Source of the DNA: a virus
Length of the DNA: 64,000 nt
Reading direction: 5' to 3' (one strand)
IMG/VR virus record: IMGVR_UViG_3300047160_018755
Location: 1 to 64,000 of that record
Shown one piece after another: positions 14,873-62,388 of the stretch. The notes beneath the pieces are model-generated. The model was given only the letters and a program-made list of their open reading frames with translations, was not told the DNA's origin and made no database searches. Positions within the stretch are counted from its first letter, which is position 1; each line of letters starts with the position of its first letter. The translations under genes were made by a program, and so were the position numbers.

Positions 14873-14957
14873 AGGAAACGGAGGGAGTCGGACCCTCGGG
14901 GCCGTAGCCCACTGGTTTAGCAAACCAGCGTGCAAAACCGACATGCACGTCGTTTCC
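14873..14957 (-). tRNA. tRNA-Ser(GCT), atypical
   Basis: acceptor GGAAACG/CGTTTCC, D stem GTGCA/TGCAC, anticodon arm CTGGT-TTGCTAA-ACCAG, variable arm GGGC-TACG-GCCC, T arm GAGGG-TCCGACT-CCCTC; U73, no CCA. Confidence 0.8.
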
Positions 14958-14963
14958 ATTTAG

Positions 14964-15050
14964 AGGAGGGCTGAGGTTTCGATCCCCCAGGGTTTCCCAC
15001 TGCTATCCTAGTTTTCGGGACTAGTCGCTCGACCACGAGCAGAACCCTCC
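14964..15050 (-). tRNA. tRNA-Ser(CGA), atypical
   Basis: acceptor GGAGGGT/GCCCTCC, D stem GCTC/GAGC, anticodon arm CTAGT-CCCGAAA-ACTAG, long variable arm, T-loop ATCGAAA; U73, no CCA. Confidence 0.65.
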
Positions 15051-15133
15051 GGAATCGCGTTAGCGACTCGACGAAGACGGACTGCTAGATGACGTGCGCT
15101 TCATGGGACGATCTCAAGATTAAGTCTATCGAA

Positions 15134-15559
15134 TCATCCGAGCGGACGCACCTCATTGTTGTACGAAAGCGCAGAAAAAGTGACGCTGCCCGCGGCCAGG
15201 GACTTGGACTCGAAGGACCAGGACTGGCTCTCCACCGAGCAGAAATCCGCTTGAAAGATGGCCGTTTGTGTGACAAGGTCCACGAGCAGGATCGTGAAGT
15301 ACTTCTCGCGCGGCAACTCCAGCAGGGTCGAGATCATGCCGCCGCCTTCGACGGCGCCGTCCATGTGGGTGCGGTAGAGACCCATCGAGCCCGACACGTT
15401 GGTCACGCCCTGCGCCAGCTCGAACGGCAGCACCGAGTCGACCGTCTGGATCTTGCGGCGCGGAGTGTCCACGCTGTAGCTGAAGCGGCTGACTCGGCCG
15501 AAGGGGTTGCCGTTCACGTACAGAACGACCTGGGCCGATGAGAGAACGATCGAGGGCAT
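15134..15559 (-). CDS. tail tube-like protein
   Basis: 141 aa; LYVNG..FGRVSRFSYS...VSGSM...SQSWSF...GSVTFSALS pattern typical of contractile tube fold. Confidence 0.6.
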   Translation of the reverse strand: MPSIVLSSAQVVLYVNGNPFGRVSRFSYSVDTPRRKIQTVDSVLPFELAQGVTNVSGSMGLYRTHMDGAVEGGGMISTLLELPREKYFTILLVDLVTQTAIFQADFCSVESQSWSFESKSLAAGSVTFSALSYNNEVRPLG

Positions 15560-31811: not shown

Positions 31812-32372
31812 TTAGCTCTCGGCGAGGACGAGGAAGACGATGGTCTTCGCGGACAGGTCCGAGGCGCTGGACTGCTGGATCTGGTCGTTCACGGTGACCG
31901 TGGCCTCGAACGAAGCCGCGGCGCTGACGTGGTCGGTGACGTTGGCGGCCATGATGACCTTGTCACCGATCTTCGCTCCGGTCGCCGTGACGTGGCCGGT
32001 GCCGTTGTTGCCCTGGGTGCAGAACGAGTGGAACGAGGCCGCGGGGAGCTTCACGAGCGACGAGGCGCTCATGTCGACCGCGCCCGTCGCCGTGAGCGTC
32101 GTGACGGTCGTCGCGTGCAGCGTGCTGGCGCCCGAGACGTGCGCCGTGGCCGACTGCATGTCGCCCGAGGCGACGAAGTTGCCCGTGATGTTCTGCGAGC
32201 CGGTCATCTTCGCGCCGTTGACGGTGACAGTACCGTCCGCGTCGCTGACCTTGAAGACGACCTTCGAGCGCTTGCCGAACTTGCGGTCGAGGAACTCGAT
32301 CTGGAAGGGCTCGCCCTGGGAGACGATGTACTGCTTCCAGTTCTTCTGTGTGGTGAACGGAGAAGTCGCCAT
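31812..32372 (-). CDS. putative virion decoration protein (paralogue, long form)
   Basis: near-colinear paralogue of 32385-32786 with ~50-aa insertion; RBS AGGAGG. Confidence 0.6.
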   Translation of the reverse strand: MATSPFTTQKNWKQYIVSQGEPFQIEFLDRKFGKRSKVVFKVSDADGTVTVNGAKMTGSQNITGNFVASGDMQSATAHVSGASTLHATTVTTLTATGAVDMSASSLVKLPAASFHSFCTQGNNGTGHVTATGAKIGDKVIMAANVTDHVSAAASFEATVTVNDQIQQSSASDLSAKTIVFLVLAES

Positions 32373-32384
32373 GGGAGCCTCCTA

Positions 32385-32786
32385 TTAGCTCTGGGCCAGG
32401 ACGAGGACGACCAGGGTCGCGGCCGAGAGGTCGGTCGCCGACTGCTGGATCTGACCAGCCTTCGTGACCGTCGACTCGAACGACGTCAGGCGCGAGAGGT
32501 GGTTGGTGACGTCCGCCACCATGATCACCTTGTCGCCGGGCTTGACGCCCGCGGCCGTGATGTGGTTCGGGGTGACCGAGGAGTTGGTCCCGAGGACGCA
32601 GTACGAGTGGAACGACGCCGCCGGCAGCTTGGCCAGGGGCGAACCGCTCATGTCGACCGTGCCGTCCGCGTCGAGGACCTTGAAGACCGTCTTGGAACGG
32701 CCGCCGAACTTGCGGGTCAGGTACTCGATCTGGAAGGGCTCACCGAGCGAGACGATCCATTGCTTCCAGTTCTTCGAAAATGCCAT
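32385..32786 (-). CDS. putative virion decoration protein (paralogue, short form)
   Basis: KNWKQ.IVS.GEPFQIE.L.RKFG.RSK.VFKV.DADGTV shared with 31812-32372; RBS AAGGAG. Confidence 0.6.
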   Translation of the reverse strand: MAFSKNWKQWIVSLGEPFQIEYLTRKFGGRSKTVFKVLDADGTVDMSGSPLAKLPAASFHSYCVLGTNSSVTPNHITAAGVKPGDKVIMVADVTNHLSRLTSFESTVTKAGQIQQSATDLSAATLVVLVLAQS

Positions 32787-32868
32787 GTGAGACTCCTTAC
32801 AGTTGGGGCGTGGTCCCGGGAATCCGGGTTGCTACCCCCAAGATTCGGTCTCCACTGCAACAAAAGCC

Positions 32869-32897
32869 TGGACATCCGGGCTCAGATCGGCTACCTT
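32869..32897 (+). promoter_or_regulatory. sigma70-type promoter, leaderless, for integrase
   Basis: TGGACA-17-TACCTT-6-ATG(32904); no SD. Confidence 0.6.
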
Positions 32898-32903
32898 GGT
32901 GTC

Positions 32904-34025
32904 ATGCCAAGGAAGAAGCGCAAACGGCCTCACGGCACGGGCTCGATCCGTGTGCGGGACGGGCGCGCCCAGGTCCAGTGGACCGAGAACGGGCGTCGCC
33001 GGTCGAAGACCGTCGACTTGGCGGAGGTCCAAACCTTCCTCGCCCGCGCCAACGCCGGCTTGGAGTCACCCCAAGAAAAGAAGGCCTCGAACCGGCTCGA
33101 AGACCTGGCCCAGACCTGGCTTGACGGCCGCGCCGGCATGGCGTCCAACTACGACGAGCGCAACCGGTGGAAGAACCACCTCGCCCCGACCCTCGGCCAG
33201 CTGACCCCCGAAGAGGTCACGGTGCCGGTCATCAAGCGTCTCATCCTGGACCTGCGCGCCAAGGGCCTCTCAAAGGGCACCGTAGGCCTCCAGATCGCTC
33301 TGGTTTCGTCGTTCTTCTCCGACCTGGTGGAAGATGGGGTGGCCGCGGTCAACCCCGTCAAAATGCTTTCTAGGAAGTCTCGGCGCGAGCTGAAGTCGGA
33401 CACCGACTGGCGCCTGACGCCCTGGATCAAGGACCCGAACGACATCAAGCGCGTCCACGACGCCATCGCGGTCACCCATCCGCAGTTCGCCCTCGCCTAC
33501 ATCATCGGGGCCCTGGCCGGGCTCCGCACGGGCGAGGTTCGGGCGCTGTGCTGGGAGCACGTCGACCTGGGCGCGCGGCTCATCCACGTCCAGGAGAAGG
33601 TCGGCCGGCGCACGGGCGTGGCCGAGCCGCCCAAGGACAAGGAGTCCCGGTACGTCCCCATCACGGACAGCCTCTACTGGTACCTCCGCCACGCGATGCC
33701 GGTCGGCGGTGGCAGGGGTCTGGTCTGCGGCGATAGTATCTTGGGCAACTTCCTCGACGACCACCGGATGGGTGCGCTCATCTCTCGCGCGCTGGAGCGC
33801 CTGCACCTGCCGACGATGCGCTGGTACGAGGCGACACGCCACACCTTCGGCTCGCAGTGGGTCGTCAACGGCGGCACCCTGGAGACCCTGCGCGAGATGA
33901 TGGGCCACTCGTCGGTGACGGTGACCGAGCGCTACGCCCACCTGATCCCCGGCAACTACACGAGCGCGGACCGCGCCCGAGTGACAATTCCCGCGCAGGA
34001 TTCGACCCACGAGGTGCTGAATTGA
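32904..34025 (+). CDS. int: tyrosine recombinase/integrase
   Basis: arm-binding-type N-terminus (HGTGSIR), GLRTGE, YEATRHTF, MGHSSVTVTERYAH catalytic Tyr. Confidence 0.9.
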   Translation: MPRKKRKRPHGTGSIRVRDGRAQVQWTENGRRRSKTVDLAEVQTFLARANAGLESPQEKKASNRLEDLAQTWLDGRAGMASNYDERNRWKNHLAPTLGQLTPEEVTVPVIKRLILDLRAKGLSKGTVGLQIALVSSFFSDLVEDGVAAVNPVKMLSRKSRRELKSDTDWRLTPWIKDPNDIKRVHDAIAVTHPQFALAYIIGALAGLRTGEVRALCWEHVDLGARLIHVQEKVGRRTGVAEPPKDKESRYVPITDSLYWYLRHAMPVGGGRGLVCGDSILGNFLDDHRMGALISRALERLHLPTMRWYEATRHTFGSQWVVNGGTLETLREMMGHSSVTVTERYAHLIPGNYTSADRARVTIPAQDSTHEVLN

Positions 34026-38452: not shown

Positions 38453-38631
38453 AAAGCTCAATTCCAGGTCGACTCGCGGTGTTCCTGTGTCAGGGGCCGC
38501 ATCCCTGCGAGCACCACGTGCGGCAGGCCGAGGAGGTCTACAAGGAGATCCTCGACATCCAGAAACACGAGCGTGAGGTCGAAGCGCAGGAAGCGCTCGA
38601 ACGCGTCGCGAACAAGGAAAAGATTCGATAG
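38449..38631 (+). CDS. hypothetical protein
   Basis: 60 aa, RBS GGAGG, ATGA-coupled. Confidence 0.5.
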   Translation: MKSSIPGRLAVFLCQGPHPCEHHVRQAEEVYKEILDIQKHEREVEAQEALERVANKEKIR

Positions 38632-41869: not shown

Positions 41870-42847
41870 ATGAAGCGCACATTCGTCACCCTGTTCACCC
41901 TCATCGCCCTCACGGGCACCGCGTCCGCCCAGGAGTTCCTGGTCGCGGACTCCAGCTCCAGCGGCACCTACCAGGAGATGGTCGGTCAGATCGCGAAGTT
42001 CTGCGGTCCCGACGGCCTCACCATCAAGGAGGTCCGCCCGACCGGCGGCGCCACCGCGAACCTCGCCGCGCTCGTCAACAACGACGTCTCGGCCGCGTTG
42101 CTCCACTCGGACGTGATCTTCGCGATGTCGCAGCAAGACCAGCAGTACCAGAAGCTCAAGACCCTCGTCGCGCTCTACCCCGAGGAGATCCACGTCATCG
42201 CTCTGCGCAACTCCGGCATCAAGACCGGCGGCACCCGCATCGGTGGCTTCGGCGCCAAGGAGGTCGTGTTCAACTCGGTCGACGACCTGCGCGGCTACAA
42301 GGTCGGCGCGGCGGGCGGCGGCGTCTACACGGGCAACATCCTCAAGGGCTCGGGCAACCTCGGCTTCGAGGTCGTCGAGTTCACGACGGGCGCCGAGGTC
42401 CTTCCGGCCCTCGACAACGGCAACGTGCAGGCGGTCATCTTCGTCGGCGGGGCACCGCTGAAGAACGTGGCGAGCCTCGACGGCAGCAAGTACAAGCTGC
42501 TCTCGATCGGCCGCAACGTCGCTCCGACCGTCTACAAGCAGGCGGTCATCAACTACCCGAACCTGCGCTCGGGTGCGGTCCAGACGCTCGCCCCGCAGGC
42601 GCTGGTGATCACCCGCCAGTACAAGACGGCGGTCATGCAGAAGCCGCAGGCGCAGTTCCGCCAGTGCTTCTTCGCCCACCTCGACGAGATGAAGGAGATC
42701 CCGGGCCTGCACAAGAAGTGGCAGGCGGTCGACGAGAACGACCACGGCACCTGGAACTGGTACGAGCTTCCGGGTGACACGGCGGCTCGCGCTCCGGCCG
42801 AAGAGGTGCCCGTGCCGGCCGTGACCAAGAAGCGCCGGCTCCGTTAG
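41870..42847 (+). CDS. TAXI-family (TRAP) solute-binding-protein-like
   Basis: signal peptide; SSSGTYQ, PTGGATANL, LYPEEIHVIA, SVDDLRGYKVG. Confidence 0.75.
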   Translation: MKRTFVTLFTLIALTGTASAQEFLVADSSSSGTYQEMVGQIAKFCGPDGLTIKEVRPTGGATANLAALVNNDVSAALLHSDVIFAMSQQDQQYQKLKTLVALYPEEIHVIALRNSGIKTGGTRIGGFGAKEVVFNSVDDLRGYKVGAAGGGVYTGNILKGSGNLGFEVVEFTTGAEVLPALDNGNVQAVIFVGGAPLKNVASLDGSKYKLLSIGRNVAPTVYKQAVINYPNLRSGAVQTLAPQALVITRQYKTAVMQKPQAQFRQCFFAHLDEMKEIPGLHKKWQAVDENDHGTWNWYELPGDTAARAPAEEVPVPAVTKKRRLR

Positions 42848-42853
42848 TATCCA

Positions 42854-43163
42854 CTAGGATTCGATCCTAGCGTAGACTAGAACCGCAAGGGTAGCGATCA
42901 ACCTTCCAGTCCACCGCCCCGTGATGCACGACATCACGGGGCGTTCCATGGAAGGCTTCCTGTCGAGAGGGAAAAGGCAAGCGGGGACAAGACAGCGGCG
43001 CCCCGTGTGCGAAGTGGTAAGCACGACAATGGCGGGACTCATGTAGCGCGATCTCGACAAGCGGTTCACCTGGCTGGCTCGCAGGTGGCCTGGCGAAGAG
43101 GATGACCCGACTCCATCGGTGCCTGTTCTGCCAGTGCGGGGGTTCGATTCCTCTGGCCAGCCC
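42854..43163 (+). ncRNA. putative structured ncRNA ending in a tRNA-like domain
   Basis: 315-nt ORF-free gap with several perfect nested helices and a terminal acceptor/T-arm mimic. Confidence 0.55.
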
Positions 43164-43183
43164 TGATTCGATAGAAAGTCAAC

Positions 43184-43591
43184 ATGGCACACAAACACTA
43201 CATGCCCTTCATCGTCACCGTGGACGTCATGGCCGCGAGCGTACCTGTCGAGCAGGTTGTGGGGGAGCTTGCGGTTCTGGCCACGCGGCTGGGCTGCTCG
43301 GTCCAGACCAAGATCTACGAGACCGACATCTTCGCCCACCCTGACGAGCAGCCGGGGGAGGTGGTCCAGCGGTGGAGGCGGCAGCGAAAGCCGCAGGTCT
43401 TCACCTGGCCGCCCGTCAAGGGCGACCGTGCCATGTACGTCGAGACGGGCGAGATCTGCACGTTCAACGGTGTCCACAACAACGGCGGCGGCTACGACAT
43501 CGTCGGCGCAGACGGCAAGGCACAGGGCGGTTTGGGTGAACGGGCCTTCGAGAGCGGCTCGTGGCTCCGCATGCACCCCGAGTTCACCTGA
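43184..43591 (+). CDS. hypothetical protein
   Basis: 135 aa, follows GATTCGATAGAA motif, codon usage like neighbours. Confidence 0.65.
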   Translation: MAHKHYMPFIVTVDVMAASVPVEQVVGELAVLATRLGCSVQTKIYETDIFAHPDEQPGEVVQRWRRQRKPQVFTWPPVKGDRAMYVETGEICTFNGVHNNGGGYDIVGADGKAQGGLGERAFESGSWLRMHPEFT

Positions 43592-44058
43592 TGTTCTGGC
43601 TGGGCTGCCTGCTTTTCATCTACTTCTCGTTCCGCGCGGACGGCTGGATCACCTGGACCGAGTTCAAGGGCGTCACCCGGTGGCTGCTCAAAGGACCCGA
43701 GAAGGTTCCCTGCTGCCGGGCGTGCGAAATCGAACTTCCCGATCCCATGCTGCGTGAGCCACTGAGGTACGGCGCGTTTGTGTGCCTCGACTGCGCGGAT
43801 GAGGTCGAGGAGGCGGCGGGGCGCCTACTCCCCGAGTGGTACACCAAACCCCTTCCCCCACGGGCCCGGGAGGTGCCCATTCAGGAATGTCCGTACGTCT
43901 GCGCCGGTTGTGGTGTACAGTGCGACCACTGGTGCGACAAGTGCGACGGAGCGATCGTGGAGCTGGCGGAGGTGTTGGAAGTGAAGACGGCGCTCGACAA
44001 AGACAGGAGCCGTGAGATGACCGATTCCGAATTCAAACGCTTCATCGTGCCGTCATGA
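43591..44058 (+). CDS. membrane-anchored Zn-finger protein
   Basis: TGATG-coupled; N-terminal hydrophobic segment; four CxxC pairs. Confidence 0.6.
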   Translation: MFWLGCLLFIYFSFRADGWITWTEFKGVTRWLLKGPEKVPCCRACEIELPDPMLREPLRYGAFVCLDCADEVEEAAGRLLPEWYTKPLPPRAREVPIQECPYVCAGCGVQCDHWCDKCDGAIVELAEVLEVKTALDKDRSREMTDSEFKRFIVPS

Positions 44059-44363
44059 GCGACACTGAAGCCCAAGCCCGAGACGCCGCCCTCGACGCCC
44101 TCGCTGCGGCTCGCGCCGAGCTGGTGGCATGGGGCAGGACCATCGCCATCGCCCTCTGCGTCCGCAACGGCCACGTGACGTCGACCGAGGTCAAGGCTGC
44201 TTTGACACGGCTCGCGAACTTCGACCCCCGCCTCTCGGAGCTGCTCGACACCTGCGACCCGCGGTGGATGGGCGTCGTCTTCCGCGGCAAGGACTGGGTG
44301 CAGGATGGCTGGGACGACAGCGGCTCGCACAAGCGCCGGGTCCCGATCTGGAAGCGACCATGA
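44055..44363 (+). CDS. hypothetical protein
   Basis: 102 aa, ATGA-coupled. Confidence 0.65.
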   Translation: MSDTEAQARDAALDALAAARAELVAWGRTIAIALCVRNGHVTSTEVKAALTRLANFDPRLSELLDTCDPRWMGVVFRGKDWVQDGWDDSGSHKRRVPIWKRP

Positions 44364-44668
44364 ACCACCTTCGATTTGACCGTTCCGGCATCGACGTCGA
44401 CAAGGCCGCCATCATCTTGGCGATCAACCAAGACGGCTGGGCCGAGCGCCTGGTGTGCAGCCACTTCGACTGGCTCGGAGACCGATGGGGCCACAACCCC
44501 TACATCGTTTTGGCCGTCCTGAAGGACGACCCCGACATCTGGTACCGGACCTTCGAGGACGTGTACAGCCGCATGGAGATCCACCACATCATCCTCCGTC
44601 CCGACTTCCGCTGCCCCGAGGGGTACGTGATGCTGGAGTCGATCCTCGAACCGGACCGCAAACTTTAA
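44360..44668 (+). CDS. hypothetical protein
   Basis: 102 aa, ATGA-coupled. Confidence 0.6.
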   Translation: MNHLRFDRSGIDVDKAAIILAINQDGWAERLVCSHFDWLGDRWGHNPYIVLAVLKDDPDIWYRTFEDVYSRMEIHHIILRPDFRCPEGYVMLESILEPDRKL

Positions 44669-44696
44669 GTTGGCGGTTCGCCAATTTTAAGTTTCT

Positions 44697-44773
44697 GCCA
44701 GCGTGGACTGAAGTAGATAGGCCCGGGATTGCAACCCCCGGCCATGCCGGTGCAAGTCCGGCCACTGGCTCCA
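44697..44773 (+). tRNA. tRNA-Cys(GCA)
   Basis: acceptor GCCAGCG/CACTGGC, anticodon loop TTGCAAC, T arm GCCGG-TGCAAGT-CCGGC, U73 and encoded CCA. Confidence 0.8.
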
Positions 44774-44780
44774 ATTCTCG

Positions 44781-44809
44781 TTGACGAACCCGATCTGATT
44801 CGATAGAGT
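44781..44809 (+). promoter_or_regulatory. sigma70-type promoter overlapping GATTCGATAG motif
   Basis: TTGACG-17-TAGAGT upstream of lipoprotein gene. Confidence 0.65.
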
Positions 44810-44852
44810 GTAAGTAGGCTTTCACTTCACACTCACAACGGAGTCAGATCTC

Positions 44853-45590
44853 ATGAAGTTCGCAGCGTCCCTTCTCATCGCGACAGCGCTCATCCTCGGG
44901 TGCGGGGACAACGTTCCCGCCCTCAGACACGGCACCGACGGAGGCGCCACGGGCGCCGCCGCCACCTCGGGCAACGGCGGCACACCGACCACCGACACGG
45001 GCACCGCGGGTACGACCGGCACGGCCGGCACGGCCGGGACCTCCGGCACGGCCGGGACCTCCGGCACGGCGGGCGCGGGAGGGACCGACGGCGTCGGAAA
45101 CCCTACCGGGACGGCTGGGTCCGGCAGCGGAAATACCACCGGGACGGCCGGCGACGGGTCCACCGGAGCCGCGGGCAGCACCGACAGCACGGGCTCAAGC
45201 GGTGCGAGCGGCAGTACCCCCACTGGTACCTCGACGAGCGGACAGGCCGGGTCTGGTGGATCGACGGGTGCGGCCAGCGACACCGGAACAGCGGGGGATA
45301 CCGGGAACTCCACGAGCGGGACAAGCGGAAGCCCGGATGCGTCCGGCAGTGGTGGGACGACCGGATCGAATACGGGCAGCGCCGGGACGACGGGCGCGGG
45401 TGGGACCGGTTCGACGGGAACAGCCGGGACGACAGGCAGCGGTGGGAGTGGCTCACCGGGCGCAGGTGGGACGACGGGTCGCCGGTACTGCGACGACGAC
45501 CAGGGTGACGACAACCAGGGCAACGACAACGCCCAGGGCGACGAAGATCAGCAGGGGTGCATCGAGCGGGTGAAGACGGGCTGCAAGTAG
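44853..45590 (+). CDS. lipoprotein with long Gly/Thr/Ser/Ala low-complexity stalk
   Basis: lipobox LILG-C; GTAGT[ST] repeats; acidic Cys-bounded C-terminal tip. Confidence 0.8.
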   Translation: MKFAASLLIATALILGCGDNVPALRHGTDGGATGAAATSGNGGTPTTDTGTAGTTGTAGTAGTSGTAGTSGTAGAGGTDGVGNPTGTAGSGSGNTTGTAGDGSTGAAGSTDSTGSSGASGSTPTGTSTSGQAGSGGSTGAASDTGTAGDTGNSTSGTSGSPDASGSGGTTGSNTGSAGTTGAGGTGSTGTAGTTGSGGSGSPGAGGTTGRRYCDDDQGDDNQGNDNAQGDEDQQGCIERVKTGCK

Positions 45591-62298: not shown

Positions 62299-62388
62299 CA
62301 GCACCGCGTCAAGGGGCCGGCCCCTTGCCAGGTTCGAGGCCTGGTTGACGCACGAACCCGTGTCACAAACAAACGTAAGGAGGATCAC

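Follow-up and report, generated by a model that had tools for sequence, protein, structure and literature searches.

A tRNA-like element, probably non-decoding, at the end of a phage gene run

Results

The gap and its neighbours

The window is the whole 64,000-nt stretch that was analysed, positions 1-64000 of a virus record that is complete at 182,279 bp and has direct terminal repeats. The phage genome has a G+C content of ~65%. Across the whole genome ARAGORN predicts 30 tRNAs, most of them in two clusters beyond the window, and a tmRNA on the minus strand (97012-97394) with a 27-residue tag ending ALAA. The TAXI/TRAP-type binding protein of the phage shares ~35% amino-acid identity with its counterparts in the jumbo phages phiRSL1 (Ralstonia) and Motura (Achromobacter). 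Judged by this protein, the phage is a distant relative of both. The best TAXI homologues are at most 60% identical, and the phage is therefore without close sequenced relatives. The window also holds a 698-aa ORF (31929-34025, +) whose C-terminal part matches tyrosine integrases (phrog_1, E 4.5e-43).

The gene for the TAXI-like protein is followed by a gap and then by an orphan ORF (Table 1). The flanking genes have GC3 values of 0.8-0.95, which no frame in the gap reaches. The gap is therefore non-coding, and an overlapping 240-aa ORF on the minus strand (42854-43576) is spurious. A 41-aa ORF on the plus strand of the gap was rejected on the same ground, the lack of a coding GC3 signature. 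Two independent ENA assemblies of the same phage carry the gap at an identical length of 336 nt.

Table 1. Features of the gap, its surroundings and the comparator tRNA gene
Feature	Position	Strand	Description
TAXI-like gene	41870-42847	+	PF16868; 5' neighbour of the gap
Non-coding gap	42848-43184		~336-337 nt, between the TAXI-like gene and the orphan ORF
Orphan ORF (ORF135)	43184-43591	+	3' neighbour of the gap
Stop-codon hairpin	42844-42880	+	imperfect palindrome over the stop codon of the TAXI-like gene; 7-bp core 42854-42870; contains the 8-mer GATTCGAT
Proposed closed 5' domain	42880-43067	+	P1 (42880-42886/43061-43067) encloses hairpin A and helix B (42961-42968/43052-43059)
Hairpin A	42902-42955	+	bipartite, 19 bp; 7-bp lower stem, 6x5 internal loop, 12-bp perfect upper stem, 5-nt loop
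tRNA-like element	43072-43163	+	92 nt; irregular cloverleaf parts
Acceptor	43072-43079/43155-43162	+	8 bp: 7 Watson-Crick and one U.G
D-like arm	43080-43085/43090-43095	+	6 positions with one A.G mismatch; tetraloop UGGC
Candidate anticodon arm	43101-43117	+	7-nt loop CCCGACU; candidate anticodon CGA at 43108-43110
V region	43118-43137	+	20 nt; can form a 5-bp stem
T arm	43138-43154	+	5-bp stem, loop UUCGAUU; directly abuts the acceptor
Discriminator	43163	+	C
Competing long hairpin	43088-43137	+	replaces the D, anticodon and V arms in the MFE structure
Promoter motif GATTCGATAGA(A)	43165-43177	+	starts 2 nt past the tRNA-like element; 9 nt separate it from the ATG of the orphan ORF
Copies of GATTCGATAGA in the window	1873, 15135(-), 34626, 36522, 38622, 43165, 44797, 45666, 51596(-), 58831(-)
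Irregular tRNA-Cys(GCA)	44697-44773	+	last feature of the next gene run, preceded by a long AT-rich hairpin (44651-44773 overall)
Irregular 8/4 tRNA-Ser(CGA)	14964-15050	-	intact comparator; MFE structure is a clean cloverleaf

Helices upstream of the tRNA-like element

The sequence-only reading described the region as a ~310-nt multibranch RNA ending in a tRNA-like domain. All of the complementarities on which it was built are present (42854/42864, 42880/43061, 42902/42949, 42915-42943, 42961/43052 and 43072/43156). They differ widely in how far they rise above chance. The hairpin over the stop codon folds with a z of -2.6. Its 8-mer GATTCGAT has three copies outside promoters genome-wide, one of them at 42858, where 2.4 are expected by chance. 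Since the non-promoter copies occur at the chance rate, the copy at 42858 was rejected as a target-site duplication or second promoter.

Hairpin A is the strongest structure of the gap (z -6.9, MFE frequency 0.62) and is among only about six perfect hairpins of at least 10 bp across 182 kb. An intrinsic terminator consists of a GC-rich hairpin and a U-tract. Hairpin A lacks the U-tract, having TTCCATGG in the 3' position instead, and the terminator scan makes no call there. Hairpin A is probably an end-of-operon stabiliser, a terminator or an RNase III-type site. The 9-mer CGCCCCGTG occurs twice (the sites concerned are 42915-42923, 42935-42943 and 42999-43007), so the 3' arm of hairpin A could instead pair with 42999-43007 over 9 bp. 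This pairing is a possible alternative conformation of the hairpin A region.

The outer helices are less clear. P1 (7 bp) has a pair probability of 0.99 and helix B (8 bp) one of ~0.73, and the 3' end of P1 falls 4 nt short of the start of the tRNA-like element. With hairpin A removed, both helices are present in 2.7% of shuffles (p about 0.03), a marginal result barely above chance. The whole 5' domain has a z of -3.7 because of hairpin A. The inner domain of helix B (42957-43070) has a z of +0.3, with 116 of 200 shuffles folding equally well, and the GTGC/GCAC hairpin has a pair probability of 0.01. The region as a whole has a z of -2.0 and its reverse complement, at -2.4, folds no worse. 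Only the stop-codon hairpin, hairpin A and the tRNA-like element clearly stand above chance. The helices of the proposed multibranch RNA exist as complementarities, but the large fold is mostly unsupported and marginal at best.

These results bear on the proposal that the region is a single ~310-nt ncRNA. Its 3' tRNA mimic would then serve as a decoy or sponge for aminoacyl-tRNA synthetases, CCA-end-modifying toxins, EF-Tu or RNase P, or as the processing handle of the RNA itself. The near-certain pairing of P1 and the mildly unusual co-occurrence of P1 and helix B are consistent with one molecule, as are helices that tile the whole gap with almost no unstructured spacer and the lack of any matching Rfam family. 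The pair G1:C91 followed by C also resembles the G-1:C73 identity set for histidine, and irregular 8/4 tRNAs with G-1 are charged by HisRS (PMC5389517). We nevertheless consider a single ncRNA unlikely. The inner domain is no more stable than shuffled sequence, the GTGC/GCAC hairpin is almost absent from the ensemble, and the opposite strand folds as well as the region itself. No promoter lies upstream, and 50 related phage records contain no match to a model of the 5' domain. As for partners, the phage has no class-II aminoacyl-tRNA synthetase core, CCA-adding enzyme, SmpB or Ro protein; searches of its genome found neither an SmpB gene nor a Ro/TROVE gene. Hairpin A, moreover, is placed where the TAXI genes of relatives carry an end-of-operon hairpin or terminator.

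Anatomy and ancestry of the tRNA-like element

The 3' part of the region is a tRNA-like domain. Its T arm fits the motif GGTTCRANYCC, and the acceptor is stacked on a 5-bp T stem with a TTCRANY-type loop. None of the 13 acceptor and T-arm pairs is broken, the T loop keeps its consensus, and every defect lies in the D/anticodon half. There is no linker between acceptor and D arm, and the linker between D and anticodon arms is 5 nt long, not 1. Further defects are the mismatch in the D stem, an A.C closing pair, C37 and the discriminator C. The sequence-only reading saw no valid anticodon arm. This is only partly right, as a degenerate arm with a 7-nt loop and a candidate CGA can be drawn. A canonical arm has a 5-bp stem, a 7-nt loop, U33 and a purine at position 37. 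The degenerate arm has four pairs plus the A.C mismatch, C33 and C37, and its ensemble probability is ~0.

The cloverleaf is not the preferred fold. The MFE structure has an energy of -42.1 kcal/mol and the cloverleaf one of -30.7, about 11 kcal/mol worse. In the ensemble the T arm has a probability of 0.26, and competition from the long hairpin leaves the D-like arm with only 0.02. For the complete element z is -1.2.

We scanned the genome for a T arm followed immediately by a 7-bp acceptor, with shuffled genomes as the control. The scan gave 25 matches: 21 annotated tRNAs, the tRNA-like element, an irregular tRNA gene at 14964-15050 (-) and two dubious sites. Shuffled genomes gave 0-2. The tRNA ancestry of the element is therefore real, and the tRNA-like domain proposed from the sequence is genuine. 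The element is irregular and probably non-decoding.

Two other tRNA-like pieces were seen in the genome. In the tRNA cluster at ~75159-75179 (-) lies a perfect T arm with the loop TTCGAAT that belongs to no annotated tRNA (RF00005 partial match, 16 bits). At 62306-62352 (+) a 47-nt mini three-way element has a 7-bp helix, GCGTCAA/TTGACGC, enclosing a GC hairpin and a T-arm-like hairpin with the loop TTCGAGG; it may be a tRNA-fragment-like structure or just paired TGACGC boxes.

Family models and tRNA finders

No curated Rfam family accepts the tRNA-like domain, which supports the sequence-only reading on this point. RF00005 (gathering cut-off 29 bits), run on the whole genome, has no match at the element at E<=10; the same model gives 25 phage tRNAs scores of 36.8-63.1 bits. 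The tRNA-Sec model RF01852 gives the element 24.4 bits, which is below its cut-off of 47 bits and within the range of ordinary phage tRNAs. The triplet UCA of a Sec anticodon is absent from the element, as the sequence-only reading had held. No ribozyme or other Rfam family accepts the element in a search of 42600-45000 up to E=10. ARAGORN finds neither a tRNA nor a tmRNA there at default settings or at ps90. A window-wide Rfam scan of the 64 kb at gathering thresholds returned zero families and missed even the tRNA-Ser(GCU) at 14873-14957, which reaches 39 bits against a cut-off of 29 in a search of 600 nt. Its empty result is therefore weak evidence on a GC-rich phage.

Several RNA classes were considered and rejected. 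The pair at position 3:70 is C-G, so the G3:U70 of tmRNA is absent as the sequence-only reading had held, and both ARAGORN -m at ps60 and Rfam find no tmRNA; a permuted tmRNA was rejected as well. An intron-containing tRNA emerges from ARAGORN -i only as forced, low-score models. No RNase P family matches 42600-45000 up to E=10 with permissive filters, again as had been claimed. A bacterial Y RNA-like RNA (YrlA) was set aside, given the unpermuted topology, the absence of a TROVE domain in the phage and the lack of an Rfam match.

At a very low threshold ARAGORN does draw a class-II cloverleaf with anticodon CGA over the element. This raises the possibility of a functional decoding tRNA, a second irregular allo-type tRNA-Ser(CGA) whose odd loop would escape host anticodon nucleases. 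The loop opens CCCGA with C33, exactly as in the intact tRNA-Ser(CGA) of the same phage, and the V region has the same length as in that tRNA and can form a 5-bp stem. Allo-tRNAs are also known to tolerate odd geometry (PMC5389517). Decoding is still distinctly unlikely in our view. RF00005 is silent on the element, the D/anticodon linker is five times the usual single nucleotide, position 37 is a pyrimidine, there is an A.C closing pair, and a C stands in place of the G or U expected as discriminator. The anticodon arm has next to no weight in the ensemble, and the tRNA would be redundant with the intact Ser(CGA) gene.

An irregular tRNA-Ser(CGA) in the same genome

In the comparator at 14964-15050, a single linker nucleotide joins an 8-bp acceptor to a 6-bp D stem that carries the tetraloop UGGU. 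Its anticodon stem of 5 bp bears the loop CCCGAAA (C33), its V arm is long and its T stem has 4 bp, which together make up the architecture of (8/4) tRNA-Ser, or allo-tRNA. Both ARAGORN at default settings and RF00005 miss it, and it scores 25.5 bits on RF01852.

The two elements share a series of unusual traits. Both acceptors have 8 bp and a U.G or U-A pair at the base. Both D arms have six stem positions, one of them mismatched in the tRNA-like element, and a tetraloop (UGGC in the element, UGGU in the tRNA). In each, the anticodon loop opens CCCGA with C33, the V region is 20 nt long, and the fifth pair of the T stem GGGG/CCUC is non-Watson-Crick. Both score ~25 bits on the tRNA-Sec model. 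By plain sequence alignment tRNA-Ser(CGA) is not the top-scoring phage tRNA against the element, several others being equally similar, and specific paralogy was rejected on that measure. As alignment does not favour tRNA-Ser(CGA), paralogy rests on the shared structural quirks. These suggest that the tRNA-like element is a likely paralogue of tRNA-Ser(CGA).

The tRNA-Ser(CGA) gene has a setting of its own. It sits 6 nt upstream of tRNA-Ser(GCU). A 14-codon ORF (15060-15104, -), in which 8 of the 14 codons are Ser, ends 9 nt before it, and a promoter motif (15125-15137, -) precedes both the ORF and the tRNA. The Ser-rich ORF could provide leader-peptide control of the two Ser tRNAs.

Searches for homologues

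No homologue of the region was found. Searches by blastn with 42600-43400 against 50,697 phage records returned none, nor did a 22-nt T-arm/acceptor pattern in IMG/VR. Across 185,579 species genomes no exact copy of the 22-nt T-arm/acceptor 3' end was found, and a 20-nt pattern in JGI metagenomes had 13 matches, all to unrelated AT-rich tRNA(UGU). Single-sequence covariance models of the tRNA-like part (R1) and the 5' domain (R2) gave nothing, or noise of at most 14.5 bits, in 50 IMG/VR records related through the helicase, and R1 gave nothing in the phiRSL1 and Motura genomes. Synteny was followed through the TAXI-like protein; relatives, at most 60% identical, have only a terminator-type hairpin downstream. 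The TAXI genes of L005 and L006 are followed by a long bipartite hairpin and that of L007 by a classical terminator, and none of the three by a tRNA-like element.

The absence of homologues in these searches weighs against the processing reading favoured below and for a neutral relic. The element would then be a decaying and functionless duplicate of an irregular tRNA gene, with the upstream hairpins simply terminating the operon. The D-stem mismatch, the 5-nt linker, the A.C closing pair, C37 and the discriminator C are what decay would produce; the alternative fold is far more stable than the cloverleaf, and the element has no promoter of its own. We regard a relic as doubtful. Decay has been uneven, with every pair of the acceptor and T arm spared along with the consensus of the T loop. 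The phage is tightly packed, and both ENA assemblies retain the 336-nt gap. The element also stands in the same position relative to a promoter as functional tRNAs do.

Phage att sites often copy tRNA 3' ends. The gap could on this ground be a DNA-level site, for example an attP core that includes a piece of a host tRNA gene and serves the phage integrase, and the tyrosine-integrase-like ORF would supply the enzyme. We hold this to be very improbable. The integrase is 9 kb away, the element includes both strands of the acceptor, and the genome search with its 3' end gave no exact match.

Promoter motif and operon position

The tRNA-like element is followed almost directly by a promoter motif (Table 1). 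The 11-mer GATTCGATAGA, usually followed by A, has 31 genomic copies at up to one mismatch, all facing a downstream gene, with start codons typically a few to ~50 nt past the motif. It is likely to be the main phage promoter and is unlike a standard -35/-10 pair. Its position a few nucleotides from start codons suggests leaderless or short-leader mRNAs. Other copies directly abut the 3' ends of tRNA-Lys(CUU) and tRNA-Leu(CAA), and one lies 21 nt after tRNA-Cys.

Upstream of the element, the nearest plus-strand copy of GATTCGATAGA is at 38622. Between that copy and the element neither a sigma-70-type promoter nor a U-tract terminator was detected, which places the element at the extreme end of a gene run. 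The 310 nt may be the structured non-coding tail of the plus-strand gene run at 38.6-42.8 kb, a view to which we give not quite even weight.

The next gene run is closed by tRNA-Cys(GCA), the only Cys tRNA of the phage. This tRNA has the T loop UGCAAGU and an acceptor mismatch, and has no Rfam tRNA match at E<=10. The AT-rich hairpin stops 2 nt short of this tRNA, and on the 3' side of the tRNA lies a TTGACG-17-TAGAGT promoter.

Discussion

A possible processing module

The reading we favour, though tentatively and at somewhat less than even confidence, is that the tRNA-like element is a degenerate, non-decoding paralogue of tRNA-Ser(CGA) kept as an RNase P/Z processing module that ends an operon. 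The element would be co-transcribed with the upstream genes. Host RNase P would cut at 43071/43072 and a 3' tRNA-processing nuclease near 43163, releasing a tRNA-like RNA of ~92 nt. The upstream mRNA would be left ending 4 nt past P1, in a 3' structure that is closed, rich in hairpins and resistant to 3' exonucleases. The next transcription unit would begin at the promoter 2 nt beyond the element. The half that tRNA-processing enzymes read, the acceptor on the T arm, is intact, and the damaged D/anticodon half can refold into the long hairpin. A processing role is plausible and fits the position of the element.

The analysis establishes the anatomy of the region, its non-coding status, the tRNA ancestry of the element and its adjacency to a promoter; transcription, cleavage and stabilisation are what we infer. 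If hairpin A were a full terminator, the tRNA-like element would barely be transcribed, which counts against a processing module. The low ensemble probability of the T arm, the modest z of the element, the marginal standing of P1 and helix B and the unremarkable sequence similarity to tRNA-Ser(CGA) weigh on the same side. A bolder version of the model is that a non-decoding t-element and a closed 3' tail together punctuate phage operons. Host RNase P/Z would set the mRNA ends and free a stable mimic, perhaps charged through its His-like G-1:C73 or soaking up acceptor-end factors of the host. We treat this as speculative and rather doubtful.

Processing of the proposed kind would mean that degenerate tRNA copies are reused as RNA-processing punctuation by phages with large tRNA sets. 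To our knowledge, such use of tRNA copies is documented for plant mitochondria and not for phages. Processing would likewise add a phage example to the non-decoding allo-type tRNA-like RNAs, which are poorly understood. For annotation, at least two irregular tRNA-type genes of this genome escape the standard tools. As an observation on a single genome, the case carries modest weight.

Comparison with known systems

Hairpin A can be compared with the RNase III processing hairpins of T7-type phages. Like those hairpins it has stems of ~7 and 12 bp around an internal loop, and it is placed between transcription or processing units. It differs in being equally readable as a U-less terminator or a simple 3' stabiliser.

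The tRNA-like domain of tmRNA offers a second comparison. In its MFE structure the element combines an acceptor, a single-stranded D analogue, a long irregular helix and a T arm, as that domain does. Unlike tmRNA it has no G3:U70, no tag reading frame and no pseudoknots, and the phage has a separate bona fide tmRNA elsewhere in its genome and no SmpB.

In architecture the element comes close to the allo-tRNAs. These first came to light as false positives of the tRNA-Sec model (Mukai et al. 2017, PMC5389517). Allo-tRNAs and (8/4) tRNA-Ser have been reported from bacteriophages and soil bacteria, and they tolerate odd geometry (PMC5389517). Some allo-tRNA-like members carry stem-destabilising changes, are unused in translation and have been proposed to be regulatory RNAs; irregular 8/4 tRNAs with G-1 are charged by HisRS and are likewise not used in translation (PMC5389517). 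The tRNA-like element shares with this group the 8-bp acceptor, a T stem with four good pairs and a long V region, and its mismatched six-position D-like stem with a tetraloop may correspond to the Sec-like long D arm of the group. The 12-bp acceptor branch of the group is split 8/4 or 9/3. It is detected only as a sub-threshold tRNA-Sec match, and its kind is known from phages. It departs from the group in several ways. Its fifth T pair is G.U, so its branch reads as 8/4 or 8/5. Its discriminator C fails the SerRS identity of G73 or U73. It has 0 nt between acceptor and D arm, 5 nt between D and anticodon arms and a pyrimidine at position 37, and its rival long hairpin is by far the more stable fold. 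Neither toxin-antitoxin nor transposon neighbours were noted. The element is thus genuine and unusual, yet of a described irregular-tRNA kind. To call it an undescribed class of ncRNA, as the sequence-only reading did, overstates the case, given the known 8/4 architecture (PMC5389517) and the intact example at 14964-15050.

For how the element probably works, the closest match is the t-elements of plant mitochondria. These tRNA-like structures of non-canonical form guide RNase P and RNase Z in the formation of mRNA ends (PMC1920247). The t-elements act as cis-signals for both enzymes and can be released as stable small RNAs, and their processing has been shown experimentally, whereas that of the phage element is proposed from its structure and position. 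They belong to an organelle, not a phage, and the comparison implies no common ancestry. What the two have in common is a tRNA-like structure that keeps the GGTTCRANYCC T arm and adjoins mRNA ends.
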